In this document: positions 21,955 to 48,500 of the stretch, piece after piece
How the letters are laid out: each line of letters starts with the position of its first letter
Numbering within the stretch: position 1 is the stretch's first letter
Assembly: GCA_965208105.1 (NCBI GenBank)
Contig: OZ242318.1
Span: forward strand, 4,032,001 to 4,096,000
Direction: 5' to 3'
Source: Candidatus Latescibacterota bacterium
GTDB taxonomy: Bacteria > Latescibacterota > UBA2968 > UBA8231
DNA length: 64,000 bases
Translations under genes and position numbers: made by a program
Notes under the pieces: generated by a model
Databases searched by the model: none
What the model saw: the letters and a program-made list of their open reading frames with translations, nothing else
What the model was told of the DNA's origin: nothing

Positions 21955-22989
21955 ATGCACCACGTCGATGAATTGCCTGCCTTTCCCGAGGGGTGGTATT
22001 TCGTAGCCACCCGGGAGAACATCCTCCGAGAGAAACTGATCGGGAAGAGATGGCTGGGTGAGGAAATCGTCGCCTGGTGCGACGAGGCGGGCCGCGTCTG
22101 CGTGGCGGACGCGGTATGTCCGCACCTGGGCTCCTACCTGGGGCCGGAGGTGGGCGGCCAGGTATGCGAGGGTCGCCTGGTCTGTCCGTTCCACGGGTTC
22201 GAGTTCGATACGACCGGCCAATGCGTCGCGACTCCGAATGCACCGGCGCCCAGAGCCGCTAAACTGAAGGTATACGAGACCAGGGTTATCCTGGGCCTGG
22301 TCTTCGCCTGGTTCGGGAGCGGAGGCCGGCCCCCACATTGGGAGCTTCCAGGCGCCCCGCCCACCGGCGAGGAGTGGGGCGGGATGGGATACCGGACCCT
22401 GCGGTTCCGCGGCCATCCCCAGGAAACAGCAGAGAATTCGGTGGACCTGGGACACCTGCGCTACGTACACGGCTACGACAATGTGAACCCGGTGGGCTCG
22501 GTAACGGTGGAAGGTGCCTACCTGAGGAGTTGCTTCGACTTCAAACGCGTTCGCAGGATCCTGGGTGTAAAGGACCTCGTGTACGAAATTTCGGCCGTGA
22601 CCCACGTCCATGGACTGGGCTACTCTTTCGTCGAAATCCACGAGAAGACCATCGGTATGAATGCCAGGCTGTGGGTGCTTCCCACACCGGTTGACGGCAC
22701 CCTCCTCGACTTTGTCCTGGTAAGCCAGATGCGGGAAATCCCCAGGCCCCGCAGGTTCATCACGGGTCTGGGGTTCGTTCCCGGGAAGCTGCGCCAGAAA
22801 TTGATGAATCACATTATGCTTTCACAGCAAAAGCGGGATGTGCTGCAGGATGTGGTGATCTGGGAACGGAAGCGGTATCGGACTCCCCCCCGGCTGTGTG
22901 CGGCCGACGGCCCCATAGGGAAGTACCGCCGCTATTGCCGGCAGTTCTATTCCGAACGCTCCGAAGACCCGCCGGAGGCAGCCGACTAG
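21955..22989 (+). CDS. Rieske oxygenase, Neverland/DAF-36 (sterol 7-desaturase) or KshA-like
   Basis: FPEGWY, Rieske CPH...CPFH, non-heme iron ENSVDLGH...H, C-terminal D..IW..K.Y..PP.L...DGPI..YRR...QFY. Confidence 0.85.
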   Translation: MHHVDELPAFPEGWYFVATRENILREKLIGKRWLGEEIVAWCDEAGRVCVADAVCPHLGSYLGPEVGGQVCEGRLVCPFHGFEFDTTGQCVATPNAPAPRAAKLKVYETRVILGLVFAWFGSGGRPPHWELPGAPPTGEEWGGMGYRTLRFRGHPQETAENSVDLGHLRYVHGYDNVNPVGSVTVEGAYLRSCFDFKRVRRILGVKDLVYEISAVTHVHGLGYSFVEIHEKTIGMNARLWVLPTPVDGTLLDFVLVSQMREIPRPRRFITGLGFVPGKLRQKLMNHIMLSQQKRDVLQDVVIWERKRYRTPPRLCAADGPIGKYRRYCRQFYSERSEDPPEAAD

Positions 22990-23081: not shown

Positions 23082-24125
23082 TCACCCGGCCTGAAGAGGC
23101 TTACGAGCCAGGAAACAGTACAGCGGCGTAAAGATACCCGCCTTGCCACCCGCGATATAAGCCTCCGCGGTCCGGTCCAGGAGTCGGACGACTTCCGCGG
23201 AGCCCTTCGGAAAGAGCCGCAGTACTTCAGCCAGCTTCAATCCTGCGATGACCGCTTTACGGCCCCACGGAAGCCTGTGCAAGGCGTTCCCAACCGTCCC
23301 ATGGCGACTCTCCATGGGTTGATACCAAGGTGTGGAGGGTCCTTCCTGGATGTCCCGGTCCATCCCTTCCATGACTTGGAATCCCGCGGCTTCGAGCGCG
23401 TGATTCACTTCCCCGAAGGTGGCGATTTCCTTCAGCGCAATGCCGTGCATGAGATCCTCCTCGATGGCCCGGTGCCGGTCGTCCTTCGGATCGAACTTGC
23501 CCGTCAGACACATTTCCTGCCCCCAGAACAGGGCACCGGGTTTCAGCACGCGGAATATCTCCTCGAAGGCGCGTTGCTTGTCCGGCGCATGGCACGTTGA
23601 CTCTATGGCATAACCCCCATCGAAAGTGTCGTCCTCGATGGCGCTCATGTCCATGAAGCTGCACCTCTCGAAATCGACCATGTGATCAAGCCCCGCCTCG
23701 GCGTTCAACCTTTTCGCCTCTTCCAACTGGATCTCATTGATGTTGATTCCCACGACCCTGACACCGGCCTCACGGACGACGCGGCGCATGGGGGCTCCGA
23801 CTCCACAACCAACGTCGACCACCGTCATACCCTGTTGCAGCTCCAACTTGGAAATCATCACCCGCTGATGCCGGACCTTGGACTCCTCCAGACTCTCATG
23901 AGGCGTGAGGGGCGCGAAGTGCAGGGACTGGCCCCAGCCCCACACCATGAACTTGCTGCAAAGGTCGTAATAGTCTTTCACTGTTTCCGAGTGATCGTAC
24001 CCGCCCGCGCCACCGGGCTCCAGCGCCGCCCGGTCGAGCCAGCCGTCGAAGTGCTGCACTCGACGTGCAACGCCCGATGCCCGGTACGCATCTCTCAGCT
24101 CTCTCGACAGTTTGCCCAGCCGCAT
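23082..24125 (-). CDS. Sterol 24-C-methyltransferase-like SAM-dependent methyltransferase (ERG6/SMT family)
   Basis: YYD...WGWGQSLHF, VDVGCGVGAP, YAIESTCHAP, LKPG, PWY, GG.AGIFTPLY..ARKP. Confidence 0.88.
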   Translation of the reverse strand: MRLGKLSRELRDAYRASGVARRVQHFDGWLDRAALEPGGAGGYDHSETVKDYYDLCSKFMVWGWGQSLHFAPLTPHESLEESKVRHQRVMISKLELQQGMTVVDVGCGVGAPMRRVVREAGVRVVGININEIQLEEAKRLNAEAGLDHMVDFERCSFMDMSAIEDDTFDGGYAIESTCHAPDKQRAFEEIFRVLKPGALFWGQEMCLTGKFDPKDDRHRAIEEDLMHGIALKEIATFGEVNHALEAAGFQVMEGMDRDIQEGPSTPWYQPMESRHGTVGNALHRLPWGRKAVIAGLKLAEVLRLFPKGSAEVVRLLDRTAEAYIAGGKAGIFTPLYCFLARKPLQAG

Positions 24126-24165
24126 TTCGTGGTGTTTCCCCCTGGCTCCACGGGGAGCCAAGTCG

Positions 24166-26199
24166 TCAGGCGGACAGCTCCCGCCGCTGCTCGGTGATGC
24201 GGAACTTCAGCTTCTTGCTCGGTTTCAGCGACGGAAACGGACTGAAACGGAGCTTGTGCTTGTACTTCGCCGGCGACACCTCAATCGTGAAGTAGTGCGC
24301 CAGCATCAGCAAGTTGGCCGCCAGGTGCAGCTCCATCCACCGGGTGCCGAGGCACTTGTGCGTGCCCAGCCCGTACGGGGCGTACCCGGGGTTGCGATGC
24401 TCATGGCGCGGCGGCAGGTAGCGGTCGATGTCGAACTTGTAGGGGTCGGGAAAGACCTCGCTCATGTAATGCGTTGCGGTCATGGCGATGTGGATCCGTT
24501 CCCCCATGGGCAGCTCGCAATTCTCGACCACGCAGGTATTCATCACGTTCCGAATGGAAAGGGAGACGATCGGGTACAGGCGCATGCACTCCATGAGGAA
24601 GCGGTGCGTCACGTCGATGTTGGCGGGGGTGAAGTCCTCTCTCTCGGGGTCGCCCTTGGCGAACAGGGCATCTGCTTCGGCCTGGATCCTGGCGTAGAGG
24701 TCGGGCTGCGACGCCATGGCGTAGATTACGAGGCTGAACATATCGCCGAGGTACACGCTGGCAATCAAGGCCGCGGAGAAGGCGAAGCGCAGGTTGGACT
24801 CCGGGAGAAACTGCGGGTCGCTCGCGTGCAGGCTGAGGTAATCGTCCACCAGGTCCCGCGGGCTGTCCGCCCGTTGGGCGGGGGTATGGACGCCCTGGAC
24901 CCGCTGCATCAGCGTGTCCAGGGCTTTCGCCCGGCGTCTCATGCCCGGGGTGTTCAGCGTGAATCTGGGCAGGAGCCTGGCCACGTGCACGCTGAGGGCC
25001 CGCAATTTGTAGGCCATCAGGTCGTCCATGAGGTCCTGGGTATCGACGCCGATGAACAGTGGCGAGAGCTGGGCGTTCACCATCGCCCTGCACATGGACG
25101 TGGCGCGGTAGGAGTCCCCGACCGTCAGGCTCGCAAGGTACTCGCGCCCCAGATTGTAGAGCTGGTCCAGCTGCCCTCCCAGCCTCCCGCCGGAATAGGC
25201 CGGCGACAGGGACTTGCGAAGCCGGAAGTGATCGGCGCCGTCCAGGGCGGGCAGGACGCCGGAGGCGCCGTAGACCTTCTCGAAGTCGCTGAAATAGTCC
25301 CTGGCTCTCAGGTACATGCGCCCGCGCTTGTGCACCCAGCGGTTCGCTTCGGGTCCGGCCAGGAAAACCATGGGTTTGGAGAAAGGAGGGCGGATCTGGA
25401 ACACCGGGCCGTACTCCTCCGCAAGGTTCCCGAAGAGCGCGTTCAGGTTGCCGTCTCGAACATGCGGGTTCAGCAGCAGCCTGGACAGCGAAACCGTCGG
25501 AATCTTCCTGGCAAGGGCAGGGCGTTGAAGGGCCGGGCCGGCGAGGTTCTGAGAGACCGCAGCGGCCAGGGAGCGGCCGATCAGGTCCATCCTGCAGATG
25601 AACTCGATGCGCTCCTCCGCCTCGTCGTCGAGCTGGAATATGAAACGGAATACGTCGCAGGTATTGACGAGGCAGATGATGATGACATCTCTCGGATCGG
25701 GAATCTCGTCGGTGAAGATGACCCTGCTGATACGGGTCCTTATGAACTGGCCCTCAGTGCCCTCCTCCGACGTTCCGGACAGTTCCCCATGCCGGACGGC
25801 AGGAGCCAGTGTCCAGAATTCGCCGTCGTGGTATTCCAGGATGTTCAGGCCAACCAGGCGGTCCAGAACCGAATCGATGATCGACTCCGCACGGGGAGCG
25901 AGCCGTTCGATCCAGTACTGGGCGTTGTGTTGCCTTGGTGCGTCCGCGATTTCCTTGAGGATGGGGTCCAGGGCGGGGTTGCCGGTTTCTGTCGCGTCCA
26001 CGAGGAACAGGGACTCCATGTCCGTGTCGATGCGGGATCTGAGCGAAAGCTCCGCGAGCACGGCGCCGGCCACGGCGCAGTTCAGGTGCCAGCCGGGTAC
26101 CTGGTGAAAGTAGCCGGTCTCCTCGTTGAGGAGCATCAGGATGAGTTCTTGAGTCAAAGTCAGCGGTTGGGTCGTCAAATCCTCGGTAGTATCAGCCAT
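24166..26199 (-). CDS. GPP34/GOLPH3-family domain fused to cytochrome P450
   Basis: N-terminal LTL.QEL.L.LL....G...AGAVLAELSL..RID...D.T.TG.P.LD; C-terminal ECMR (ExxR), FDIDRY and heme motif YGLGTHKCLG. ATG 26199 has a GGAGG SD. Confidence 0.85.
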   Translation of the reverse strand: MADTTEDLTTQPLTLTQELILMLLNEETGYFHQVPGWHLNCAVAGAVLAELSLRSRIDTDMESLFLVDATETGNPALDPILKEIADAPRQHNAQYWIERLAPRAESIIDSVLDRLVGLNILEYHDGEFWTLAPAVRHGELSGTSEEGTEGQFIRTRISRVIFTDEIPDPRDVIIICLVNTCDVFRFIFQLDDEAEERIEFICRMDLIGRSLAAAVSQNLAGPALQRPALARKIPTVSLSRLLLNPHVRDGNLNALFGNLAEEYGPVFQIRPPFSKPMVFLAGPEANRWVHKRGRMYLRARDYFSDFEKVYGASGVLPALDGADHFRLRKSLSPAYSGGRLGGQLDQLYNLGREYLASLTVGDSYRATSMCRAMVNAQLSPLFIGVDTQDLMDDLMAYKLRALSVHVARLLPRFTLNTPGMRRRAKALDTLMQRVQGVHTPAQRADSPRDLVDDYLSLHASDPQFLPESNLRFAFSAALIASVYLGDMFSLVIYAMASQPDLYARIQAEADALFAKGDPEREDFTPANIDVTHRFLMECMRLYPIVSLSIRNVMNTCVVENCELPMGERIHIAMTATHYMSEVFPDPYKFDIDRYLPPRHEHRNPGYAPYGLGTHKCLGTRWMELHLAANLLMLAHYFTIEVSPAKYKHKLRFSPFPSLKPSKKLKFRITEQRRELSA

Positions 26200-26230
26200 C
26201 GGTTTCTGCCTCCCTGCATCATGAAGTGCA

Positions 26231-29200
26231 TTACGCGGTACCGGCGCCGGAACGGCGCCGCGAAGCAATCAGACGCAGATGGATGGTGTAAAGCGCGGGA
26301 ACGACCATCATAAGTATAGCCGTGGTAATGAGAATGCCGCAACCGAGCGAGGCGGCGAAGGGGATCAGGAACTGGGCCTGGATGGCGCGTTCCAGAATAA
26401 GGGGCGTGAAGCCGAGGAACGTGGTCAGGGAAGTGAGCATGATCGGACGAAAGCGCCCCTTGGCGCCCTCCACGATCGCCTTCCTTGCCGAGGCGCCTTC
26501 CCCGATTTTCTGATCGATGAAATCGATCATGACCAGGGAATCGTTCACGACCACCCCACTCAGGCCGAAGATACCCATGAAGGATACGGCACTCAGGGCT
26601 ACTCCCAGGACCCAGTGACCCAGGATCACTCCGATGAACCCGAAGGGGATGACGGCCATGATGATGAACGGCTTGGTATAGGATCGGAGGGGGATGGCCA
26701 GAAGGGCAAAGATCATGATCAGGGCAATCGCGAACCCGCGGTACAGCGCATCCAGGGATTCGAGCTGCTGCTGTTGTTCCCCTCCGAAGCTGTATGTCAG
26801 GTCCGGGTGCAGGGCGGTCAGATCCGCGAGGATCGAATTGGCCAGGATGTCGTTGGCTGCGTCGCCTGAAATCACCGAAGCATCCACGTCCGCAGTGACC
26901 GTGACGACGCGCTGGCCGTCCTTGCGTCGAATGGCCGGCGGCGACACTCCCGGGTTCAGGGAGGCCACACTCATGACCGGGACCTCGGCCCCGCCCGGCG
27001 TGCGGACCAGATAGCTTTCGACATCGGTGATCGAATCCCGCTCGTCTTCGGGCAGGCGCACGTAGACCCGGACCTCTTCCCGGCCGCGCTGCACCCGAAC
27101 GGCCTCTGCGCCGAAGAACGCCGCCCGCGCCTGCCCCGCCAGCTCCTCGAGCGTCAGGCCGAGGGTTCGCGCTTCCGGCCGCAGCTCCAGTTGCACCTCC
27201 GGGATGCCCGGGGCGTGGTCCGAACGTATGTCGTAGACGCCTCCCACCCCGCGGAGTCCATCGACCACGGAGTCTGCAATCCGGGCAAGGCGCTCCGGGT
27301 CCGGATGCGACAACACGGCCTCCACCGGGTTGCCCAGGTCGAAGACCTCGCCGCTGAATGTGATGCCGCGTACGTAGGGCAGCACGCCCACTTCCTCCCG
27401 CCATGCCTGCACGACCTCTCCGGTGGAGATTTCTCTCTGTTGGGCGCCCAGAAGTTTGAACTCGATGGTGGCGATGTTGGCTTGCGGATTGAGGGTCGGC
27501 TCCGGATTGAGCCCGCCCTCGAGTCTCGATCCCTGTCCGACGGTCACCGTTACGCCGGTCAGCAGCGGTGGCGCGTCCCCGGGCCGGCCGCGCGAGAGTC
27601 GTTCGATGACCCGGTGGCCTGCGGCCTCCAGTTCCTGCGCCACCTCGTACGTCCTCGGAGCGGTCGCCCCGTCGGGCATCTCCAGGACGACCGTCGCGAT
27701 ATCCCCCTCCACGTCAGCGGCCAGCGTGGTAGGAACGATCCCCGCGGGCAACAGGGAGATGCTCAGCACGAGCATTCCCACGGCCGCCGCCATGGTCACC
27801 CCGGGCTGGTCGGTGGCGAACCGCAGGGCGCGGTCCAGAGGCCCTTGCACGAACCTGTTCAGCAGCGCGTCAACGCGCCCCTGGAGCCGCGCGAAGAACC
27901 GGTCGAAGGCATTGGCCGGCACCCACTCCGGGCCGTGCAGGTGGGAAAGGTGGTTGGGCAGCACCAGCAGCGATTCGACCAGGGAAACCAGCAGCATGGC
28001 GATCATGATGATCGGCAGGGCCCGCCATACGTCACCGACGCCACCCGGGATGAACAGCAACGGGACGAAGGCCACTACCGACGTGAGGACTGCGAACGTC
28101 AACGGCACCTTGATCCGCCGCACGCCGCGGATCGCGGCCGTGACCCCTGGTGTTCCCCGCTTGCGTTCGTATCGAATGTGCTCGGCCACGACGATGGCGT
28201 CGTCGACGACGATCCCTATGGCGAGGACGAAGGAGAACAGGCTGATGGTGTTGATCGCCACGTCGAATGCCATCATGATGGCGAGGGCGCCGATACCCGA
28301 AACGGCGAGGCCCACGGCGACCCAGAGCGCGAGTCTTATTTCAAGGAACAGGCTGAGTGCGATCAGCACCAGCAACAGGCCCAGGATCCCGTTCTTGAGG
28401 AGAAGATCGGCGCGTTCCTCATAGACCTGGGATTCGTCGTTCCACATGGTGACGCCCACGCCGTCCGGCAGGGCCGGGATCACCTCCTCCGCCAGGTGCT
28501 CGCGGACGGTGGTGGCCACGTCCATCACCTGCTCGCCTTCGGCCCGGTAGACCTCGACGAAGACGGCGGGATGGTTCTGATGCCGGACGATCAGGTCGGC
28601 TTCCTGGAAACCGTCGCGGACCTCGGCGATATCTCCAAGGCGCAGGACCGTGCCGTCACGGCCGCTGAGAAGGACGATCTCCTCGAAGTCCTGCTGGTCG
28701 TAGTTCTGGCCGAGGGTGCGGACCCTCACCTGGGATTCCCGGGTATCGATGCTGCCAGCGGACAGTTCCAGGGAACTCCGGCGAATCGTGTGGGCGATGT
28801 CGGTGAGCGTGAGTCCGAGGGCTCTCAGCCGGTGCAGGGGAACCTCGATGGAGATCTCGTATCTCCGGACACCGCTGACCTCGACCTGGGAGACGGAGGG
28901 AAGCGTGGTGAGGTCGTCCTCGATCTGGTAGGCCAGTTCCTTCAGCGCGCGCTCGGAGACGTCGCCGTAAACGATGAGCCGCATCATGCTCTGGCGGTTG
29001 GTCATCTCCCGGAACCGCGGACGTTCGGCGCCGGCCGGGAAGAACTGTATGCGATTGACAGCAGATTCGATATCATCCAGCGCCCGTGCCATGTCCGTAT
29101 CGAAATCCATTTGAACCCGCACGGAGGCCATGCCCGGGGCTGCTACGGACTTGACAGCCTTCACGTCATCCAGCCCGCTGACCTGGTCCTCGATCTTGAC

Positions 29201-29425
29201 GACGATCGACTCCTCGATCTCCTCCGGTGTGGCGCCGGGATAGGCCATCGAGACTTCGATATGGTAGAAAGGGGTGGTGGGCCAGGCTTCCCGCTCGATA
29301 CTGGTCAGCGACACCAGCCCTGCGGCGATGATGGCCCACATCAGCAGATTGGCGGCTACGCCATTCCCTGCCATGTAGGCGATGGGGCCGGCTGGTTCGC
29401 TGTGATTGCCGTTGTCTGTACTCAT
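26231..29425 (-). CDS. RND efflux transporter permease subunit (AcrB/AcrD/AcrF family)
   Basis: 1064 aa; YPGATPEEIE, GIVVDDAIVV.E, GVVVNDSLV, RFRPIMLTSLTT. Confidence 0.93.
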   Translation of the reverse strand: MSTDNGNHSEPAGPIAYMAGNGVAANLLMWAIIAAGLVSLTSIEREAWPTTPFYHIEVSMAYPGATPEEIEESIVVKIEDQVSGLDDVKAVKSVAAPGMASVRVQMDFDTDMARALDDIESAVNRIQFFPAGAERPRFREMTNRQSMMRLIVYGDVSERALKELAYQIEDDLTTLPSVSQVEVSGVRRYEISIEVPLHRLRALGLTLTDIAHTIRRSSLELSAGSIDTRESQVRVRTLGQNYDQQDFEEIVLLSGRDGTVLRLGDIAEVRDGFQEADLIVRHQNHPAVFVEVYRAEGEQVMDVATTVREHLAEEVIPALPDGVGVTMWNDESQVYEERADLLLKNGILGLLLVLIALSLFLEIRLALWVAVGLAVSGIGALAIMMAFDVAINTISLFSFVLAIGIVVDDAIVVAEHIRYERKRGTPGVTAAIRGVRRIKVPLTFAVLTSVVAFVPLLFIPGGVGDVWRALPIIMIAMLLVSLVESLLVLPNHLSHLHGPEWVPANAFDRFFARLQGRVDALLNRFVQGPLDRALRFATDQPGVTMAAAVGMLVLSISLLPAGIVPTTLAADVEGDIATVVLEMPDGATAPRTYEVAQELEAAGHRVIERLSRGRPGDAPPLLTGVTVTVGQGSRLEGGLNPEPTLNPQANIATIEFKLLGAQQREISTGEVVQAWREEVGVLPYVRGITFSGEVFDLGNPVEAVLSHPDPERLARIADSVVDGLRGVGGVYDIRSDHAPGIPEVQLELRPEARTLGLTLEELAGQARAAFFGAEAVRVQRGREEVRVYVRLPEDERDSITDVESYLVRTPGGAEVPVMSVASLNPGVSPPAIRRKDGQRVVTVTADVDASVISGDAANDILANSILADLTALHPDLTYSFGGEQQQQLESLDALYRGFAIALIMIFALLAIPLRSYTKPFIIMAVIPFGFIGVILGHWVLGVALSAVSFMGIFGLSGVVVNDSLVMIDFIDQKIGEGASARKAIVEGAKGRFRPIMLTSLTTFLGFTPLILERAIQAQFLIPFAASLGCGILITTAILMMVVPALYTIHLRLIASRRRSGAGTA

Positions 29426-30636
29426 GGTGTGGAGTCGATTTCTGTCTGGACCCGCATGCCTTCGGTGGCAAACAGGATCCCACCGGTGATCACCGCCCCG
29501 CCGCTTTCGAGATTACCGGTCACGATTACCCGATCGTCGGCGCGCTGCAGCACCCGTACCGGAACGATACTCACCGCCCCGGCTTCATCCACCAGCCATA
29601 CCACGTTCCCCGGGCGCAATGCTGCTCGAGGCACCTTGAAGTAGCTGTCCAGTGCAACGCCTTCGATCTCCACCTCCACGAAGGCGCCCACCAGCAACGG
29701 CGGGATGCCGCCGGAGCCACCGGAACGGGCCGCCGGGCCGCTAGCGGAAAACGGGTTCGGAACGCGCACGATCACGTCGATGGTGCGGGTTTGCTGGTCG
29801 AGGGATGCCTCGGCCCGGTCGACGTAGCCATCCCGGGCATGACTCCCGCCGCCGTATCGGGTGACCACCCGGGCTGCCACGCGCCGGTCCCCATCGCCGG
29901 GCTTGAGTTCCCAAAGCCCCGGGATCAGGTCGGCGTCGGCATCGGACAAGGGCACGACCACTTCGACGGCATCCGCGGCGAAAAGTTTCCCGACCGGCTG
30001 GCCGGAGGTGACGATTCGTCCCACTTCGGCGGATTCTTCGCGCACGAAGCCGGCGAAGGGGACGGTTACCCTGGTTCTGTGAAGGGCGAGATTGGCCTCG
30101 GCGAGGCGGGCTTCTTCGCGCTTCAGCGCGGCACGGGCGGCCTTTAACTGGGGCTCCCTCAGCGTGAGGGGACTGGCTGGTGGCGGAGAATCCCCACCCT
30201 CATGCCGCTGGGAGTAGAGCTCGTACTGATCGCGGGCGATGGCCGCTCGTTCCTCCTCTTCGAGCAGGGCCACACGTCGTGCGGCGAGATTGGCCTCGGC
30301 CTCCATCACCCGGTAGCGATAGTCCGCCTCTTCGATGCGAAAAACCGCCTGGCCCGCCTCCACCCGGCCGCCGCTCTGGAATCCCGGATCCACCCAGACG
30401 ATTTTGCCGCCCACTTGCGGTGCGACATCGATCTCGGCGCCTGGCCTTACGGTTCCGGCCCCGGATACGGGTATGGGGCCGGAACCGGCGCTGACCAGAC
30501 CGGTCTGCGCGAACGGCGTTTGGGGCGGCGGATCGGTGCGGGCCGGCTCGGGGGCCAGCGAGACCAGAAAAGCCGCCAGGGCCGCGGAGACCACGATAAT
30601 GGCGCCGGCTAAAATAAAGCTGAGAATGCGGGACAT
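29422..30636 (-). CDS. RND periplasmic adaptor (membrane fusion protein)
   Basis: N-terminal TM, lipoyl halves (PQVGGKI; VPFAGFV), coiled coil, VPRAAL. Confidence 0.92.
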   Translation of the reverse strand: MSRILSFILAGAIIVVSAALAAFLVSLAPEPARTDPPPQTPFAQTGLVSAGSGPIPVSGAGTVRPGAEIDVAPQVGGKIVWVDPGFQSGGRVEAGQAVFRIEEADYRYRVMEAEANLAARRVALLEEEERAAIARDQYELYSQRHEGGDSPPPASPLTLREPQLKAARAALKREEARLAEANLALHRTRVTVPFAGFVREESAEVGRIVTSGQPVGKLFAADAVEVVVPLSDADADLIPGLWELKPGDGDRRVAARVVTRYGGGSHARDGYVDRAEASLDQQTRTIDVIVRVPNPFSASGPAARSGGSGGIPPLLVGAFVEVEIEGVALDSYFKVPRAALRPGNVVWLVDEAGAVSIVPVRVLQRADDRVIVTGNLESGGAVITGGILFATEGMRVQTEIDSTP

Positions 30637-30642
30637 GGCGAT

Positions 30643-32187
30643 TTACTCCGTGGAGGTCGGAAGAAACTGGGTGGGGGCGGCGTTGTCCTGCCGGACGGAC
30701 CTTCTGTCGTGGGCCGTCCACGAGCCTCCCAGGGCCCGGTGCAGTGCAAGGCGGGCGAAACCCAGGTCGCGGTTTGCCGCCGCCTGCACCGATTGCGCGA
30801 TCAGGAAGGATTGCGAGGCTTCGAGGAAAGCCTCGTAATCCCCCACTCCCGCAGCATAGCGAAGCTCCTGAAGGTCGGATTCAGCTTTGGCTTCCCGCGC
30901 GATTGAAGCCAGCAGGGAATGACGGCGCCGGCTGGCCTCCAGTCCTGTGAGAGCGGTCTCAACCTCGTTGACCGCGGTCACCACCGAACGTCCGAAGGCC
31001 GCCGCCGTTTCGTTCAGCCTGGCTTCTGCGAGTGCCACGTTGCCGCGCAGCCGCCCACCCTGGAATACCGGCCCGAGCAGGTTCATGCTGAGGTTTCGGA
31101 ACCACTGATCCGGGTCGAACCACTCGCCCGAGTCGGTGCTCTGGAGGCCAATGGAACCTTGCAGGGACAATCTTGGGAGCAGATCCGCGCGGCGGGCGCC
31201 AACGGTGAATCTGGCAGCTGTCACCCGCTGCCATGCCGCGCCGACGTCGGGCCGCTGCACCAGGAGATCGGCCGGGATACCAGTGGGGACAGGCTGGAGA
31301 ACGGAAGATGCAGCCAGGGAACTGGGAAGCGAATCTGCGATGTGTTGGCGGTGACCTCCCATAAGCACCCAGAGCCGCCCTTCGGCATCCGCCCGCAGAG
31401 ATTCGACCTGCGGCAGCCTGGCCTGGGCGTCGCGCAGGCCCCGGCGCGCCAGACGCAGACCGCGCGCATCGATGAGCCCGCGATCGTAGCGAGATTCGGC
31501 CAGCGACTCCAGCTGTTGAAAGATCTCCACGATTTTCTCTGCGAGTCTCTGTTGATGGCGCAGGCTTACGATCTCCAGGTAAGTCCGCACGGTTTCGGCC
31601 ATCACCCCCATTCGGGCATTCAGGTAGTCCCACTCCGAGGCCAGCCGTGCCGCTCCAGCCGCGGCGGCGTCGTTGCGATTGCGGCCCCAGAAGTCGAGTT
31701 CGTAGGCGAATTCCACGTCGGCGTTGTAGGCAGTCAGGCCGAGCCGGTCGGGAAGAACGATGCCGGATGCGCTTTCGGAGTCCGAACCCAACCCCAATTC
31801 GTCCAGTTGCGCTCCGATTCCTGCATTCGTTGGCGCATTGAAGTCGTTGACGCCGACAGTCGACTGAATCGACGGAAACGCCGGAGCTTTGGCGATGCGT
31901 TCCCTCGCCCTGGCCTGATTGACCCGGGCGACCGCCTCGTCCAGGTCGAAGTTCGAAAATATCACCTCCTCGATTACCTGGTCGAGGACTGGGTCGGCGA
32001 ATGTTTTCCACCACTCCAGTGGTTCGTAGGCCCCGTCGATTTTACTGCCGGCAAACTCGTCGGGTAGTCCCGCAACCGGATCGAGGACCGGAGAGTTTCG
32101 GCCTGGTGCGAGAGAGCAGGCGGAGACGAGATAGCCGGCGATGGCGGGTAACAGCAACGCCGGGAGATAGTTCCATCGAACCTTCAT
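30643..32187 (-). other. RND outer-membrane factor lipoprotein (NodT/OprM family)
   Basis: Lipobox LVSAC, WWKTF.DP.L, YELDFWGR, P.DLL.QRPD, ALGGSW. Start at ATG 32187. Confidence 0.92.
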
Positions 32188-32345
32188 CAACCATCCTCGT
32201 GGACTTGATCGACCACTGCGTCGCAGTGGTGGTGGAGGGGGCAGGCGCTCCAGGGGTCGGCTTGGCAGCTGTTTCAGGAGCGGGACGGTCATCAAGTCAC
32301 ATGCGCATGGTTCCATTGCAAGCTGAACTGTTCAGGGGTAGTATC

Positions 32346-39568: not shown

Positions 39569-42500
39569 TCAACCCTCCGTACTCGAATCCGCCCCCGCCT
39601 CGATCCAGTGGCGGCGCCGCTGAAACGGATAGCCCGGCAGCGAGACCCGGCGCCGCGTCTCTCCGGCGAACAACCCTGCGAAGGAAATCGCCATTCCAGC
39701 CTGGTACGCTTGCGCAACCGATGCGACGAAGCCGTCGCCCCACTGACAGTCCGGCCGCAGGCTGGACAGCACGACCGGCGTCTCGACAGCGTCGGCGGAC
39801 TGGGTCCGGGAGCGGGCGACCATCGGCCCCAACACCGCTTCCGGGGCGATTTCCACGATGGCCTGCACGCCCAGCTCGGCCAGGGTTTCAAGGCATTGGC
39901 CAAACGCCATCGACTCACGCGCCTGCCGCTGCCAGTACGCATCGTCGGGCGCATCCTCTTCCTTTATCACCCGTCCCGACACACTGCTCACCAGGGGGAT
40001 GGATGGCGGCGCAACCGCGATCCTTTCCAGTGGGTGCTTTGCGTTCCGGGTCCCTGCCAACCGCAACCCTTCCTCCAGGGAGAACAACCCCGCTGCCTGC
40101 GCTGCCGCGACCTCCCCAACGCCCTGCCCGACCACCGCGCCAGGCCGAATCCCCACGCTCGCCCACAGCGCGGTAAGGGCGCACTCCAGCGCGTACAGAG
40201 CTGGCTGAGTCCACTCCGGGTCGTCAAGAGCTCCCTCCGTTCCTGCCCGGCCGAACATTACCTCCAGAAGCGAAGCGCCTCGATCTTCCCGCAGTTGAGC
40301 GTCGCAGCGATCGAGCACCGCCCGGGCCACCGGCTCGCTTTCGTAGAGGTCCTGACCCACGCCGACCCACTGGCTGCCCTCTCCGCCGTAGGCGAACGCC
40401 ACCTTGGTGGGCGGTTGCGGCTGCGGCCGCTCATCCGCCTCCGCGATGGTCTTCAGTCCGTCGCGCAGCGACTCGACATCGCGGAACACCACGCTGGCGC
40501 GGCAATCGAAATGACTGCGTCCCATGCCCGCAGTCCACGCCATGTCCGCCAGCACGGTTTCCGCGGTCCCCGCATCGGCAAGCTCTTCAGCGCGCTCTTC
40601 GAGCCAGGACAGATAAGCCCCGGCCAATGCCCGCAGGGCGCCCTCCGCCTTGCCCGACAGGGGCAGCACCCGCGTTCCCCGCCCCCGGAACTCTTCCTCT
40701 GACAGCGTCAGGTCCGCCATCGGCTCCGGCAGGGAAACGGTTATTTCTCGCGCAGTGCCCCTGGGCAGGAACCCGTCACTCGATTCGACTCCGGTCTCTT
40801 CTCCGTATCCCTCCACAACGACGTGGGAGTTCGTGCCCGAAATCCCGAAGGCACTCACCCCCGCGCGCGGCGGTCGTCCGTTGTTGCTCGGCCAGTCCGT
40901 CACGGCGGCCACCACCCGCACCGGAAGCTGGTCCCAGTCCAGGTGCGGGTTCGGGTCGCGGAAGTGCAGGTTGGGCGGAATTACTCCCCGCTTCATGGCC
41001 AGCACGGTCTTGATCAGGCTCGCAACCCCGGCGGCCGGCTCCAGGTGGCCGATGTTGGTCTTCACCGAGCCGATCAAAAGCGGACGGTCCGCTTCCCGGT
41101 CCCTGCCGTATACCGCGGCCTCGGCCTGCACCTCGATCGGGTCGCCAAAGCCCGACCCGGAACCGTGGGCTTCCAGGTAATCCACTTCCTCCGGGGCAAC
41201 GCCCCCCCGCTTCAGCGCCTCCTCGATCACCCGCTCCTGCGCCGGACCGTTCGGCACCGTGGGTCCGGCGCTCGCCCCGTTCTGGTTGACCGCCGACCCG
41301 AGAATCACCCCCCAGATGCGGTCGCCGTCGGCCTCTGCCTCGCTCAATCGCTTAAGAACGATCATTCCGCAGCCTTCACTCCGCACGAAGCCGTCGGCAG
41401 CGGCATCGAAGGCCCTGCACCTTCCGCTCGCCGACAACATTCCCAACTCTGCCATCTCCCGGGTCAAATCAGGCGACAGAACCGCCTGTGCGCCTCCTAC
41501 CAGGGCCATGTCCACTTCGCCCTGCTGCAACGCGGAGACGGCATAGTGCACCGCCACCAGTGATGAGGCGCAGTTGAGCTCAACCGGTATCGTGGGCCCT
41601 TCCAGACCCAGGGCGAAGGAAACCCGTCCGACGGTCATGCTCCCCGCGGTACCCAGGTAGCTGACCCCGTAGTCGCCGCCGGCCATTAAGTCCCGGTACT
41701 CGCTGGTGGAAATGCCGGCGTATATCCCGGTCCGGCTGCCCCGCAACCGGTCCGGGTCAATCCCCGCATCCTCGAGGGCCTGCCAGCTCGTCTCCAGCAG
41801 CATCCGCTGCCGTGGATCCATCAGGCGCGCCTCGATCGGGGCGATCCGAAAGAACCTCGAGTCGAATTGCTCGAGCCCTTCCACGAACCCGCCCTGGCGG
41901 TATGCGGCGTAATCGGCGGGAAGATCCTCGGCGAGATCGGCCCAGGACCCGGAATCTCCGCGTCCGTCCGTCACCGCGTCTGCGCCAGCTTCGAGCTGGT
42001 GCCAGAATGCCGGGAGGTCCGGTGCGCCGGGGAACCGGCACGCCATGCCTACGATGGCGATGCCGTCCTCCTCGCCATGCACCGTCGGTCGGGGCTCCGG
42101 CTGAGGTTGAATCTGAGGGGCGGGGGCACTGCCGGTCTCGCCCAGTTCCCCGGCCAGATGCCGCGCGAGAGCGGCGATATCCGGGTAGTCGAACACAACG
42201 GTGTTGGGGACTACGTATTCCTCGGAAAACGCCCGGTTCAGGCGGTTGCGCAACTCTACCGCCATCAGCGAATCCATTCCCAGATCGAAGAATCCCACGG
42301 TCGGCTCCGGCTCAGTCGGAAGCCTCAGCACCGCCTGCACCTCCTGCTGCAGGAAAGTGGCGAGCAGCTCCTCGCGTGCCGGTGCTTCCCGCAAGCGGGA
42401 CAGAAGGTCCTCTGACGAGGCCGGGGAGGCTTCGTCGTCCGAGGCGACGGACAGCAGGTCCTCCAAAAATGGAGGACGGTCTTCCACTGCCTCTTCGAAC

Positions 42501-45500
42501 ACCGACCAGTCCATCGCCATTACCACGGAAGCCGTGGAATCCTGGCGCACCAGTTGGTCGAATGCCTGCAGGCCCTGCTGCGGGGTGAACCAGCGGCCTC
42601 CCAGTGCTGATCGTTGCCGGTCGATTCGATCCCGTTGTTCGGCGGCTTCGCCAATCTCCGACCATGCCCCCCAGGCGATAGCCTGTCCGGGAAGTCCCTG
42701 CGCACGGCGGTGGCCGGCTAGTTGATCCAGGAAGGCATTGGCTGCAGCGTGGTTCGCCTGGCCCGGATTGCCCATGACCCCGACTCGGCTCGAAAAGAGG
42801 ATGAAGAGATCCAGATCGCGATCCTCTGTGGCCCGGTGGAGATGCCATGCGCCCAGAATCTTCGGCCAGAGCACCGTTTCGAATCGCTCCCAACTCTGGT
42901 TGGAAAGCGCGCCGTCCGACAGCACGCCCACACTGTGGATAACTCCCCCAAGGGGCGGCAGCGTCGCATCAATCCGCGTCAACATCTGGTCAATGGCGGC
43001 GGTGTCGGTCACATCCGCGAGTTCCACCTGAACCGTCAGGCCGCGCTCGCGCAGATGGCCGATGGCCTCCTCGGCCTCGGCATCCGGAGGCCGGCGCCCA
43101 TTCAGCACGATTACACCTGCTCCGTGGTCGGCCAGCCAGCCGGCTACGGCGCATCCGATCCCGCCCAGACCACCGGTCACCAGATAAGTCCGGTCCTGTC
43201 TCAACCTCCCCTTCAAAAGCGGCGTCGGAGTCACGACGATTTTCCCGAGGTGCCGGGCAGATCGCATGAAGCTCAACGCGGCCCCTGCCTCGGCCAGTGG
43301 CCACCTGCTGTGAATGATCGGTTTCAGCTCTCCGGCCGAAAGGCGCTCCATTACCTCCCGGAGAACCCTTCCTACCCACGCCGGCTCGGTTTTTTTCAGG
43401 ACATCCAGTTCGAGGATGGCGTAGGCCACATCCGGACGCACCGCCGCCATCTCCTCCTCGCTCAGGATGTCCCTCCGGGCCATCTCGACGAACCTGCCGC
43501 CCTGTCTGAGGCAGGACAGACTGGCGTCGATGAAGCCCTCTCCCGTAAGGCTGTTGAGCACCACGTCCACGCCCGCGCCTCCGGTTGCTTCGAGGATTTC
43601 CGTGCCGAAGGCTGTATTGCGGCTGTCGAATATGTGCTCCACCCCCAATGACCGGAGATAGGCCTGCTTCGGGGCGCTCGCGGTGGCGAAGACTTCAGCT
43701 CCAGCGGCCTGCACCAGCTGAATTGCCGCCAGCCCGACGCCGCCGGCGCCTGCGTGAATCAGCACCCGCTCACCGGCCTCCAGTCCAGAAAGCTCGAAGG
43801 AAAGCGCCGCGGAAACGAATGCGCTTGGCACCGTGGCCAGTCCGGAGACCGAGAATCCCGACGGCGCGGGCGCCACCAACTCTTCCCTTGTGATCATTTG
43901 CGGCCCGAAGGCGCCGAACCCCAACCCGACCACAGGGTCGCCTGCGGAGACGGTTGACACCTCGGACCCCACCTCGAGGATGTGGCCGCACATCTCCCTG
44001 CCCAGCAGGCCCTCTTCGATGAATCCGAGAGACCGAAACACGTCCCAGAAGTTGAGCCCGGCCGCCTCGACCGCTACGCGAACTTCCCTCGGTTCGAGGG
44101 CAGGCGCAGGCAGCGGGTGGACATAAGGTCTGTCGAACACCCCTGCCGGGTCCGGAGCCAGCACCCAGTCAGGCTCCTCGGGAAGGGACAGCCGCTCCGC
44201 TTCGGCCCCCGAACGGACAAGGCGCGCCACCCGACGGCTACCCGACCGATAGGCGATGTGATTCTCGGCATCAGGATAAAGGAGTTCCCTGACCAGGTCC
44301 GGTGCCGGCGCCATCTCGCCGGGGTCCAGATCGATCATCTTCGGCTGCAGGTGCGCCGCTTCCCGGGCAATGGCCTTGCCGAAGCCCCAGAGCGTTGCCC
44401 CGGCGAGTTCCCCGCCGCGCTCCCGCTCCAGCAGCTGTGCGCCCCGCGTGATCATCCAGACGCCGTTGGCAGGGACAGCATCGGAGTCGATGACTCCCTG
44501 CACCAGAGCCAGAGCGCTGGCTCCAGCCCGCCTTACGTCCTCCGCCATTTCCCCGGTCGTGGCCTGTGCCCCGTGACCGTCCAGTCCCGCGAGATGCACA
44601 ACCCCGCTGAGTGGCAGGTCGTCGGGCAGACTGGTCACGAGTGATTGCCAGGACTCGCGCCGATTCATTTCCACGGCGGTCCTGAAAACACCGGGGCCGC
44701 CCGCAACCGGCCCCTTTTCTTCCGGCGCATCGCTGCTTGCCAGCACCACGGCCTGGTTCCGCGCCGCCAGATCGGTTGCCAGCTTTTCCGCCAGCCCTCC
44801 CTGGTCACCTGCCAGGACCCACACACCTGTGGGCTCCGCAACTTCCGCCGGGCCCTGGGCTACGATCACACCTTTGTCCGGCGTCCGCGAGGGGTCCGAT
44901 TCATCCGGCCCCAGGACTTCCACCGCCTCGAAACCCGCGTTGCCGAGTGCCTGGCGCCACACCGCGGGACTCGCCAGGGCGTGGTGGGGGCGGTAGTCGT
45001 CGGCGAATCGCCACCAGCCGTCCAACTGGCCGAAGGTGAGGTCCATCCAGCCCAGACCGCTCAGGTTCTCCAGCGCCACCAGCTGTCCCGATGGCGCGAG
45101 AAGGTCGCGGCAGTGCCCCAGGGTCTCTTCCAGGTAGCGCGTCGCGTGCAGCACGTTGGACGCGATCAGCAGGTCGTAACCATGGGAGTCGAAACCCTGG
45201 GAGATCGGATCCTTCTCGATATCCAGCGGACGGTACTCGATGCAGCCGCCGCCGTCGCCGAAGCGCGCCTCCGCTTCGGCAAAGAAGCCCGCGGAGATAT
45301 CCGTGTAGACGTAGTCGAACTGTCCTTCAGGAAGCTCCGGAAGCACGGAGGCAGTCGCAGATCCTGTCCCCGCCCCGACCTCGATCACCCTGAGCCGGCG
45401 GCCCGCGGGCAAGGAGGCCACCAGCGCCCTCACCGCTTCTGCCAGCATCCGGTTTGCCGCGCGCGCCACCGGCGCCTTCAGATAGAGATCTGCCGCCGTC

Positions 45501-48500
45501 GGTTCTCCGCTGCTGAACAGCAGGGTCAGGGGATCCGCGCCGCCGCGCAGCACCTCGGCCAGCGCGCGGCCGGAGCGCCGGAACAGCCCGATCTCGGTAA
45601 GGCCGTGGGGGTGCCGGTCGGCCATCCGCGAGGCGAACTCCTCGAGATCGCCAGGCATTTCACCCGGCAGCGGATCCTCGGGTCCCACGGCTACCGTGAA
45701 CCCGGTGTCTGTCTCCTTCACCACGCCGGACCTGGCGAGCATCTCGAAGAGCCGCCGGAAGAGGCGCTCGTGCTCGGAGAGGACATTCAACTGGCTGCGC
45801 AACTCCTCCGGGTCCACGGTCTCGCCCGCCCGGCGCTGCCAGCCCAGTTCTTCCAGCGTCGCCAGCGCGCGGGACCGCGACCAGCGCTCTAGGTCCTCCA
45901 GCAGGGCGTCCCGGTCCCCGGGGTCGACTCCCGCGTCGGTAAGGTAGCCGGCGAACAACTGCGAGCCTTCCGCGACCGCCGCGGGGCTCGGGAAGAAGTC
46001 CGCAGGTGTTATCCCGGATGGAAGGTCGCGCTCGCGCCACACCACCTCGTATAGCAGGTCCTTCACCCCCTGGACTGCCGACAGGAGCGCCTCCCGCGTT
46101 GCCCGCTTCACCGAGTACCCACTGATGCCACCCAGCGGACCCCCGTTCGGGTCGTAGAATTTCAGCTCTCCGCTCAGCACTTCAGGCGGCTCACCCGGAG
46201 TCGCTTCTGCGTCGCGGGACGCCGCGCTCAGGCGCACGTGGCAGATGACCCGATCGGGCAGCCGACCCGCCAGCCACAGCCGTTCCCAGCCGAACGGCAG
46301 ATAGGTGGCTCCACCTTCGGTCCCCGCCAGGTTGCGCGCCACGCCGAAGACCTGGAAGCACCCGTCCAGCACCAGCGGATGGAAATCAAGCCCGTGCCTG
46401 GTCAGAGATTCGGGCAGTGACACCTCCCCCAACGCCTCACCAGGGCTGGACCAGGCCTTCTCGAGCGTGCGAAAGAAGGGGCCGAGATCGACCCCGGTAC
46501 TGGCCCTGTGGCGGTAGTAGCCCGCCAGGTCCACCGGCGACAGGCCGGACTTCAGATTTTCCAGGTCGATCCTCCCACCGGCTTCCACTGCCGGGGAACC
46601 CGATGCCATGCTACCTTCCACATGTACCATCCATTCCCCTTCACTTCCCTTGCTGAAGATCTGAACAGCGGGCGACGACGCCTGCTCGGAAGCGTCGACC
46701 ACGACCTGCATCTTCCGGCCTTCTTCACTCGTCCCGTCCTCCTCCTCGAAGACCAGGGGGTTGTGCAACTGCATGTTTTCTACGACCACTGGCCCGACTC
46801 CTTCGACGGTGGCGGCCGATGCGGCCATGGCCCCGTAGAGGGCGCCCGGCGCCACGACTCTGCCGAACACCCGGTGGTCGTTCATCCACACCGGATCAGA
46901 GGGGAACACCTCCGTCTCGAAGGTAATCTCGCCGCGGGCGGATTCGTGCCGAAGGCCCAACAGGGGATGGCCGGAACCACGCTTCGGCCCCTTGGGCGCC
47001 TCGACCCAATGGCGTTCGCGCTGGAAAGGATAGCCCGGCAGCGAGATCCGTCGCCTCGTTTCTCCCGCGAATAGTCCCCCGAAACGAATTGGGAGCCCCG
47101 CCTGGTAGGCCTCCCCCACCGCCCCCACGAAACCGTCCCCGCTTTCGGACTCAGTTTCATCGCCCGATGGCGGGCTGAGGCTCGACAGCACCACCGGTGC
47201 GGGCGTACTTGGCGACCCCGGCCAGGAGGAGGCCGCCATGGGAGCCAGCACTGACCGGGGGCCGATCTCCAGAACCACGTCTACCCCGAGGCCCCCCAAG
47301 GTTTCGACCCCCTGGGCGAATGCCACCGGCTCCCGGGCATGCCGCCTCCAGTAGGTTCCGTCCTGCGCCTGGCCCGGTTCCACCGCCCTGCCCGTCAGAT
47401 TGCTGACCACGGTAAGGGAGGGAGGCTGGATCGCCATGCCTTCGAGGGAGGATTCCAGTTCGTCCAGGATGGGCTCGACCAGCACGCTGTGGAACGCCCT
47501 GGTCGTATTCAGACGCCTGACCCGCACTCCCTCCTGTTCGAATCGATTCGAGATCGCTTCAATGTCCACAATCGGGCCGCTTACCACCTGGTGGGTTCCA
47601 TTGTAACCCGAGATGCTCAGCCCGGCGTCGGAGGAGGCCGCGTTTACCGCTTCCACCGCGGATGCCACCAGCTCCGGCGAAGCGAAGACCGCTGCCATTC
47701 CACCCTCTCCCATCTGCGACATCAGCGTTCCCCGGACGGCGGCGAAGCGCATCCCGTCCTCGAGGCTGAGCACCCCTGCCGTCTGGGCCGCGGCCAGTTC
47801 ACCGATGCTGTGTCCGACGACCACGTCGGGCCGGATACCGAGGCTCGACCAGAGCGCCGTCAGGGCGCACTCCAGGGCGTAGAGGGCCGGCTGCTCCCAC
47901 TCCGTTTGGCCGAGCTCCCCTTCCCCCCCAGGGCGGCCGAACATCACGTCCAGCAGCGAGGTCCCTCTTTCACGGAGAAGGACTGCCTCGCAGCGGTCCA
48001 GGACCGCGCGCACCACCGGTTCGCTTTCATAGAGGCTCCGTCCCATGCCTACCCATTGGCTCCCCTGGCCCGTATATACAAACGCGACCTTGGATGGTGA
48101 CTGGGCGGCAGGTCCCCGGCCTGACTCTGCAAGTGCGCTCAGGCCCTGGCGCAGCGACGCTGAATCGCTGAATACGACGCCTGCACGGTGGGCAAAATGA
48201 CTGCGTCCCACACCCGCCGTCCACGCCATGTCCGCAAGCAGTGCTTCTCCTTGGGAGGCGGTTTCCCCAGCCTGTTCGTCGAGCCATGCAAGGTATCGCC
48301 CTCCCAAATCCCGCAGCGCCGCTTCGGATTTCCCCGACAGTGGAAGAAGACGGGTCCGCCGGGGCTGGACCTCCCCCTCCGGCAGGGGCAGATCCGCCAT
48401 GGTCGCCGGTACCGCAATCGCCACCGGCTGCGCCGGGCCCATGGCCCATCCATCATCGACGGGCGTCCCGTTGGAGCCTCTGTACTCCTCCACTACAAGG

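Follow-up and report, generated by a model that had tools for sequence, protein, structure and literature searches.

A GOLPH3-fold domain fused to a cytochrome P450 in a candidate sterol-tailoring gene cassette of a Latescibacterota bacterium

The closest described relatives of the protein considered here are those named GPP34_L by Ferreira et al. (Microbiome 2025; PMC11706023, January 2025), in which a GPP34 domain and a cytochrome P450 are combined in proteins of sponge symbionts. According to the main text of that paper, this architecture accounts for 656 of 663 long GPP34 proteins, forms a monophyletic group found in sponge symbionts only, occurs in 92.6% of symbiotic Latescibacterota (n=27) and of Gemmatimonadota (n=54), and shows expression in metatranscriptomes of sponges; the other fusion partners reported there for GPP34 are a Rieske domain and an ABC ATPase. 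Its authors proposed that GPP34_L is a secreted effector that binds phosphatidylinositol 4-phosphate (PI4P) and blocks phagosome maturation. We analysed one such fusion together with its gene neighbourhood. It is encoded in a stretch of 64,000 nucleotides (nt) of Candidatus Latescibacterota bacterium (assembly GCA_965208105.1, contig OZ242318.1, positions 4,032,001 to 4,096,000), which we refer to as the window.

Two other groups of systems bear on this locus. GOLPH3 is described as binding PI4P through a pocket formed by W81, R90, R171 and R174 (Wood et al., 2009, PMC2806290), and as binding, through its acidic face, membrane proteins whose cytoplasmic tails are short and basic (bioRxiv 10.1101/2025.06.26.661719). 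Sponge symbionts have also been described as carrying sterol gene clusters: clusters with sterol methyltransferases (SMTs; Brown et al., 2023, PMC10070321), the ERG24-CYP51-LSS 'CSGs' (Kelly et al., 2022, PMC9531527) and msb (PMC7074536). By the account of Brown et al., at least 15 of 24 metagenomic bacterial SMTs alkylated sterol side chains in vitro (12 of 14 environmental enzymes and 3 propylating symbiont ones).

We show below that the open reading frame (ORF) in the window encodes a genuine two-domain protein, with a GOLPH3-fold N-terminal domain covalently joined to a complete P450. We further propose, at roughly even odds (a probability of about 0.5), that this protein acts as the oxidising member of a mobile gene cassette for tailoring and transporting sterols obtained from the host, and that its GPP34 domain would serve as a targeting or adaptor domain that does not act through PI4P.

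A GOLPH3-fold domain covalently joined to a complete P450

The fusion gene and the features within it are as follows, in window coordinates.

24166..26199, minus strand: GPP34-P450 fusion gene, 677 amino acids (aa) plus stop (ORF translation, Pfam)
25552..26157, minus strand: GPP34 / GOLPH3-fold domain, aa 15-216 (Pfam PF05719)
24169..25488, minus strand: cytochrome P450 domain, about aa 238-677 (Pfam PF00067)
24742..24762, minus strand: atypical I-helix stretch A480-D486, ASVYLGD (alignment columns)
24580..24591, minus strand: ExxR motif ECMR, E537-R540 (translation)
24352..24354, minus strand: codon of the haem-ligand Cys616 in YGLGTHKCLG (translation)

A first-pass annotation of the window had described a single continuous ORF with its end at 26199, a GPP34 N-terminus of about 220 aa, and a full P450 with the motifs ECMR and YGLGTHKCLG and its Cys codon at 24352-24354, and all of this was borne out. 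The minus-strand ORF is uninterrupted, its longest form covering 24166..26268 from a TTG start; the ATG at 26199, which gives a protein of 677 aa, is favoured as the start because a Shine-Dalgarno-like GGGAGG lies 8-13 nt 5' of it and because of the lengths of its homologues (673-686 aa in 119 of the 120 best homologues listed, the remaining record of 664 aa being labelled partial). In Pfam, PF05719 (GPP34) matched aa 15-216 over profile positions 1-199 of 201 (E 6.1e-31; 108.5 bits, cut-off 29.1) and PF00067 (p450) matched with E 1.9e-33 (116.4 bits, cut-off 22.8). Both P450 signatures, the FxxGxxxCxG haem loop and ExxR, are present in the protein, and C616, E537 and R540 are invariant among 42 aligned fused proteins. 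An AlphaFold2 (AF2) model of the whole protein was confident, with a predicted local distance difference test (pLDDT) score of 89.1 and a predicted template-modelling score (pTM) of 0.85.

The fold of the N-terminal domain was addressed with a separate AF2 model of aa 1-240 (pLDDT 80). When this model was compared with the PDB by Foldseek, all eight matches with E<=0.001 were GOLPH3 or Vps74 structures (E 4e-8 to 2e-5, TM score 0.50-0.67, 16-18% identity). From a single sequence the link to GOLPH3 is weak (E 0.03); with a profile of the N-domains, GOLPH3 (3kn1) was matched at E 2.8e-5. No sign of a signal peptide or of an N-terminal anchor was found: mean hydropathy over the first 25 aa is 0.26, with no hydrophobic segment there, and the most hydrophobic 19-aa windows of the protein are core helices, so that on its hydropathy profile such an element was ruled out.

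Both Pfam domains were found in all 120 of the best homologues listed, which come from many independent assemblies, and the fusion is therefore no assembly artefact. At E<=1e-30 there are 384 relatives in a library clustered at 50% identity, and many of these are fused and full-length (650-690 aa), with identities as low as 26%. The fusion is widely conserved: a scan of one genome per prokaryotic species gave 524 stretches encoding a relative, of which the best 80, all in other genomes, are 67-94% identical, bear nine submitter phylum labels and show 593-654 aligned residues in one piece. The possibility raised at first pass, that homologues are always separate genes and the fusion a sequencing error, is thereby removed.

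A FastTree phylogeny was made of the 82 ORFs clustered with the fusion (the 80 loci, the window and one stray long-branch ORF). To place the nine phylum labels on it, which are the submitters' own and may come from mixed bins, takes 12 changes, where 8 is the smallest number possible, and the branches are short. Such a tree fits a few transfers between phyla followed by vertical descent. The records related to the fusion locus are sponge-MAG-like (metagenome-assembled genomes) by title, and sequencing runs holding 26-37% of the window's words were labelled coral-reef, sponge, marine or plain metagenome, or bore a coded organism name. In RNA libraries of two studies there are contigs that match parts of the SMT and fusion genes at 90-97% likeness, uncovered bins in this comparison carrying no meaning, and one contig of 524 nt bridges the junction of the two genes (23682-24206). 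We take this as a weak hint of expression only, because libraries of this kind may contain DNA and the contigs derive from relatives.

The P450 part of the full-length model was closest by Foldseek to CYP184A1, P450 BM3 and Methylococcus CYP51 (target TM score about 0.8, 14-21% identity; 0.82 and 21% for Methylococcus CYP51). The same CYP51 was its best phmmer match among solved P450s (E 9e-18), over aa 417-651 only, and a search of the ESM Atlas with the P450 part returned generic 'cytochrome P450' clusters only. Judged by its sequence, the domain is far from any solved P450. P450s are assigned to a family at more than 40% identity to its members, and the I-helix signature of CYP51 is His-Thr; a CYP51 identity was accordingly rejected on the 21% identity, the partial match and the different I-helix. 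An (A/G)Gx(D/E)T pair in this helix is the oxygen-activation motif of P450s, and P450s without the acid-alcohol pair are known, with unusual chemistry. The window protein lacks the motif and reads ASV-YLGD, with a one-residue gap and no D/E-T pair, a form shared by the window's clade (10 of the 42 aligned rows, the window protein among them); most other, more distant fused relatives read AG(L/I)DT. The unusual helix is a hint, at the level of sequence, of non-standard chemistry. The fusion holds the only intact P450 of the genome; a second P450 trace is a fragment of 107 aa with two in-frame stops, corresponding to profile positions 381-448 (2117356-2117559; L002).

Gene neighbourhood and its conservation

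The genes flanking the fusion are listed below.

30643..32316, minus strand: outer-membrane efflux protein (OMF), first gene of the apparent operon (Pfam OEP, E 6e-41)
29422..30636, minus strand: membrane-fusion protein (MFP), a HlyD-type subunit (Pfam HlyD_3), with a 4-nt overlap with the next gene
26231..29425, minus strand: AcrB-type permease of the resistance-nodulation-division (RND) superfamily, directly upstream of the fusion gene (Pfam ACR_tran, E 4e-161)
23082..24161, minus strand: SMT homologue (Pfam Methyltransf_11 and Sterol_MT_C)
21955..22989, plus strand: Rieske [2Fe-2S] oxygenase with a KshA-type catalytic domain (Pfam Rieske and KshA_C), convergent with the SMT gene

The OMF, MFP, RND, P450 and SMT genes follow one another in the same direction on the minus strand, no gap or overlap exceeding 31 nt. 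The SMT ORF begins 4 nt downstream of the P450 stop, and its real start is perhaps an internal ATG at 24125. The protein scores 66.2 bits with Methyltransf_11 and 58.6 bits with Sterol_MT_C (cut-off 21.7), is encoded by the only Sterol_MT_C gene of the genome, and has at aa 74-82 the stretch WGWGQSLHF, which we take to resemble the SMT region I motif. The nearest solved relatives of the Rieske protein are 3-ketosteroid 9alpha-hydroxylases (KshA; E 2e-22). Identity with SdmA was considered for it and rejected, as NCBIfam NF052579 scored 29.2 bits against a cut-off of 600 and the protein is closer to KshA.

The context was surveyed in the best 80 of the 524 loci, over up to 10 kb on each side, by tblastn with the window proteins at thresholds of at least 55% identity and at least 50% coverage; the alternative transporter and the flavin adenine dinucleotide (FAD)-type protein were recognised by ORF clustering followed by annotation.

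SMT: 60 of 80 loci, and in 52 of the 60 no more than 400 nt from the P450 gene
Rieske: 59 of 80
SMT or Rieske: 69 of 80
SMT and Rieske: 50 of 80
AcrB-type RND: 21 of 80, orthologue at 72-94% identity
MMPL/Patched/sterol-sensing-domain RND: 40 of 80
FAD amine-oxidase-like protein: 39 of 80
Some RND-superfamily transporter: 61 of 80
SMT, Rieske and transporter together: 44 of 80
Neither SMT nor Rieske: 11 of 80, two of them short

The partner proteins are 57-94% identical across loci of different phylum labels, and the alternative MMPL transporter carries Sterol-sensing and Patched domains. In 40 and 39 of the 80 loci, respectively, this transporter, of about 830 aa, and the FAD amine-oxidase-like protein, of about 460 aa, stand in place of the AcrB-type pump (for example L049:13501-16053 and L043:15753-17603, in Dehalococcoidia and Nitrospirales records).

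Additional fused paralogues, 33-38% identical, are common in genomes of the phylum. SMT, Rieske, MMPL/sterol-sensing-domain transporter and FAD oxidase genes were each found at none of 17 distant paralogue loci (L088-L104), and an RND gene at one of the 17; the sterol link is therefore confined to the window's clade. A Sulfotransferase_3 protein is encoded nearby in 13 of the 17 (for example L102:12014-13438), and an inositol-monophosphatase (Inositol_P)/CysQ-like gene lies near some distant paralogues. The sulfotransferase-linked paralogues suggest a pairing in which hydroxylation is followed by sulfation, and the fused family appears to be divided into subfamilies that each go with a different tailoring enzyme for lipids or small molecules.

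The genome of the window also encodes a stand-alone GPP34 protein of 218 aa (3350823-3351422; L004:1489-2145) that shares 38% identity with the N-domain of the fusion; downstream of it is a response-regulator/SpoIIE gene, and no P450 is nearby. Elsewhere in the window, at 39569-49831 on the minus strand, is a type I polyketide synthase of 3420 aa (KS-AT-DH-MT-ER-KR-ACP, then a second KS), which presumably resembles the methyl-branched fatty-acid polyketide synthases typical of sponge symbionts.

Substrate source and role of the GPP34 domain

The genome is a single contig of 4.85 Mb, 93.9% complete. A profile search of it gave no matches for SQHop_cyclase_C, SQHop_cyclase_N or squalene epoxidase, and de novo synthesis of sterols or hopanoids in this genome was rejected on the absence of cyclase and epoxidase. 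Among 168 species genomes of the phylum, with a fused homologue called at E<=1e-80, 49 carry the fusion, belonging to 3 of 14 families; a genome of the window's own genus is without it. Sterol_MT_C is present in 30 of the 168. The fusion accompanies it in 28 of these 30, and the two genes are adjacent by coordinates in 24 of the 28. Only 3 of the 168 genomes have a cyclase, none of them among the 49 fusion carriers. The sole genome of the phylum with both Sterol_MT_C and a cyclase (G092, of the same class) has no fusion, and may be a de novo sterol producer, unlike the cassette carriers.

Carriers were also drawn from the 80 related loci under all phylum labels, some of them labelled like the window's own phylum. 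Of these 50 genomes, 27 have a cyclase, which lies far from the cassette, and 23 have none. Five carriers labelled with other phyla (G011, G015, G020, G024 and G044) have ORFs of 1217-1315 aa that match the cyclase domain less strongly (E about 1e-51 to 1e-55), one in G011 lying about 3 kb outside the cassette locus; these are possibly fused squalene epoxidase/oxidosqualene cyclases, compare those described in PMC10070321 and PMC7074536.

A squalene-synthase-like gene (SQS_PSY) is present in the genome of the window (4575931-4577028; L006:1369-2469), its best NCBIfam model being TIGR01559 (squalene synthase), below that model's cut-off. It occurs in 35 of 75 genomes of one family (f1), including the cassette-free genome of the same genus. 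With the same query it was found in 0 of 22 genomes in a second family (f3) and 1 of 31 in a third (f4), of which 13 and 14 carry the fusion. The gene tracks lineage, not the cassette.

In a profile alignment of the GPP34 domain to full-length GOLPH3, W81 corresponds to W37, R90 to A44, R171 to E105 and R174 to I108, so that of the four pocket residues three are missing and only the tryptophan is kept; the placement of R171 and R174 falls in the second half of the alignment, which has low posterior probability. A ten-residue GOLPH3 segment before R171 is absent from the fusion N-domain in this alignment. Across 42 fused proteins, the R90 column holds A, V, S, G or T and is basic in none; in the R171 column 28 have Asp or Glu and none a basic residue; in the R174 column 22 have Arg or Lys, with Ile in the window protein; and in the W81 column 13 have Trp and 14 have Arg. 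The domain is also strongly acidic, with an isoelectric point (pI) of 4.37 and a net charge of -22 (family medians 4.74 and -12); the P450 domain is basic (pI 9.2). The tip of the beta-hairpin of the N-domain reads HDGE and is polar, not hydrophobic. A metal or iron-sulfur site was considered for the N-domain and rejected, no N-domain cysteine being among the invariant or at least 90%-conserved columns of the family. Because the R90 column is never basic, R171 and R174 are replaced by E105 and I108 and the charge is -22, a GOLPH3-style anchor on PI4P or anionic membranes appears unlikely from the sequence.

We propose that the P450, the C-24-type SMT, the KshA-like Rieske oxygenase and an RND-superfamily transporter would form a cassette, mobile by horizontal transfer, for tailoring and moving a sterol-type lipid, a role suggested by the conservation of gene order. 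The transporter would be AcrB/MFP/OMF in the window and of MMPL/sterol-sensing-domain type in the Chloroflexota versions. With neither squalene/oxidosqualene cyclase nor squalene epoxidase in the genome, the substrate would be taken up from outside, most plausibly as sponge-host sterols. The P450 may carry out a non-standard reaction, for example a desaturation that gives the SMT its olefin. Most speculatively, and by analogy with the acidic face of GOLPH3, the GPP34 domain would ignore PI4P and use its acidic surface to dock the soluble P450 onto basic cytoplasmic segments, such as those of the transporter. Alternatively, it might pack on the basic P450 domain and keep the enzyme near a membrane-embedded substrate. 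A complex prediction of the N-domain with the P450 domain scored 0.00, a run made without controls that is evidence neither way.

Several points weigh against this proposal. The function is read from the neighbourhood, and the chemistry is inferred. The 11 loci without SMT and Rieske within 10 kb at our thresholds, two of them short, do not conform to it. We saw no ferredoxin or reductase partner adjoining the fusion gene, and a tripartite AcrB-type pump works as an exporter, not an importer, which leaves the uptake of host sterols unexplained. The cyclase in 27 of the 50 carrier genomes makes an endogenous substrate possible there, and the squalene-synthase-like gene makes a linear triterpene substrate possible in the genome of the window. 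The co-occurrence counts within the phylum overstate independence, because genomes of one phylum are kin. Finally, the R174 column is basic in 22 of 42 family members and lies in the less reliable half of the alignment with R171. The interpretation given at first pass thus divides: its sterol idea gains from SMT, Rieske and RND neighbours that are kept in most of the 80 loci, and its membrane anchor, taken as a GOLPH3-style attachment to PI4P or anionic lipid, is not supported by a domain that keeps one of the four pocket residues and carries a charge of -22.

The best placed of the alternatives, which we still regard as improbable, is the first-pass version: it accepts the sterol cassette and lets the GPP34 domain itself bind membrane or lipid, replacing the N-terminal anchor of eukaryotic P450s or handing substrate to the haem. 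In its favour, eukaryotic sterol P450s are membrane-anchored and bacterial ones soluble, and the pTM of 0.85 of the two-domain model suggests a fixed arrangement. To our knowledge no lipid cavity is known in GOLPH3, and the charge of the domain disfavours electrostatic binding to anionic bacterial membranes; its hairpin tip is polar, and the PI4P pocket is not kept. The other partners reported for GPP34, the Rieske domain and the ABC ATPase (PMC11706023), likewise work at the inner face of the membrane, in agreement with this alternative.

It is also rather improbable that the substrate is an endogenous linear isoprenoid such as squalene, or that the cassette detoxifies membrane-active sponge metabolites by oxidising, methylating and pumping them out. 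SMT-like triterpene methyltransferases of Botryococcus act on squalene, and the genome combines its below-cut-off TIGR01559 match with a lack of epoxidase and cyclase. The AcrB/MFP/OMF pump is an exporter, as detoxification would have it, and the paralogues adjoin sulfotransferases, a conjugating enzyme class. Yet the occurrence of the squalene-synthase-like gene goes with lineage rather than with the cassette, steroid-ring hydroxylases are the nearest relatives of the Rieske partner, and bacterial SMTs of metagenomic origin, at least 15 of 24 in the account cited above (PMC10070321), alkylate sterol side chains in vitro.

The published effector model, in which the protein is secreted, binds host PI4P and blocks phagosome maturation with the P450 part supporting this somehow, is for the window protein unlikely, and decidedly so. 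In its favour, sponge symbionts are the sole reported source of the family, with expression in them (PMC11706023), the N-domain shares its fold with a eukaryotic PI4P effector, W81 has a counterpart in W37 within the window's clade, and among the runs that partly hold the window are ones labelled sponge, coral-reef and marine metagenome. Against it stand the loss of three of four pocket residues, with the R90 column basic in 0 of 42, and the net charge of -22. There is no hydrophobic N-terminal segment, type III, IV and VI signals not having been searched; a haem enzyme would need electron donors outside the bacterium; and the gene is translationally packed between an RND pump and an SMT, a link that is conserved. 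Least probable by far, the joining of two separate genes by an assembly or frameshift error is refuted by the homologue, library and locus data: both domains in all 120 best homologues listed (664-686 aa), alignment in one piece at 80 loci and full-length fused proteins down to 26% identity.

Significance and comparison with known systems

A wider picture can be drawn from the sterol-cassette proposal, although we consider it less likely than not. In it, sponge symbionts of at least nine phylum labels share the cassette horizontally, and bacteria unable to make sterols use it to remodel host sterols and pass them on; the GPP34 domain is an adaptor, a role ancestral to that of GOLPH3; and the sulfotransferase-paired sisters do likewise for sulfated lipids. 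If true, side-chain-alkylated sponge sterols, including precursors of the disputed 24-isopropylcholestane biomarker, could be joint host-bacterial products. The prokaryotic GPP34 fold would then bring lipid enzymes to membrane transport machinery, and the Golgi adaptor GOLPH3 could derive from it.

The fusion itself is already known, and its discovery is not new, because GPP34_L has been published (PMC11706023); the first-pass view of it as a functional clue to bacterial GPP34 domains was anticipated by that January 2025 paper. A link of GPP34-P450 to sterol chemistry was not found in print, including the main texts of PMC11706023, PMC10070321 and bioRxiv 10.64898/2025.12.19.695621; Fig. S11 and Data Set S1 of Ferreira et al. 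may list neighbours under other names. If the link holds, it would give bacterial GPP34 domains their first concrete functional setting, and a testable enzymatic model would replace the speculative phagocytosis-effector model. Host sterol combined with symbiont tailoring would become an added route in the long-standing dispute over which organisms produce the alkylated sponge sterols that serve as the oldest animal biomarkers. The three-gene set (P450 fusion, SMT and Rieske) is named here and is directly expressible and assayable.

The window protein has GPP34 followed by P450 in one chain, as GPP34_L does, and is a member of that group. Our account differs from the published one in the SMT, Rieske and RND neighbours, the missing cyclase and the pocket residues, which are absent from the main text of PMC11706023. 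That main text has no occurrence of sterol, lipid, methyltransferase, sulfotransferase, efflux or RND, which indicates that gene context was not weighed in it; its supplements may show flanking genes.

With the sponge-symbiont sterol clusters the cassette shares an SMT with Methyltransf_11 and Sterol_MT_C, a Rieske protein, a spread over many symbiont phyla and signs of horizontal transfer, as far as the published accounts of those clusters go. They are read there as de novo synthesis and include oxidosqualene cyclase, CYP51 and sterol reductase; the cassette, by contrast, lacks all three and is found in genomes without a cyclase. The main text of Brown et al. (PMC10070321) uses none of the words P450, GPP34 and Rieske, though Supplementary Data 1 of that paper may list neighbours under other names.

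Compared with GOLPH3/Vps74 (3kn1, 9qpq, 2zih, 2zii, 4tu3), the N-domain has the same fold and an acidic surface that recalls the client-binding face of GOLPH3. It differs in its 16-18% identity, in the pocket positions A44, E105 and I108, in the absent ten-residue stretch and the polar hairpin tip, and in being fused to an enzyme in a bacterium, which has no Golgi. The P450 domain finds its best solved sequence match (E about 1e-17) in CYP51, including the CYP51-ferredoxin fusion of Methylococcus capsulatus (6mcw, 7jj1), and like it stands in a sterol-related context. Unlike CYP51 it has neither an acid-alcohol nor a His-Thr pair, and its genome has no cyclase to make a 14-methyl sterol. The partner fused to it is no redox domain, unlike that of Methylococcus CYP51-ferredoxin: where P450 BM3 and CYP51-ferredoxin carry electron-transfer domains, GPP34 has no cofactor motif or conserved cysteine. 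What the window protein shares with both is a P450 covalently joined to a helper domain.

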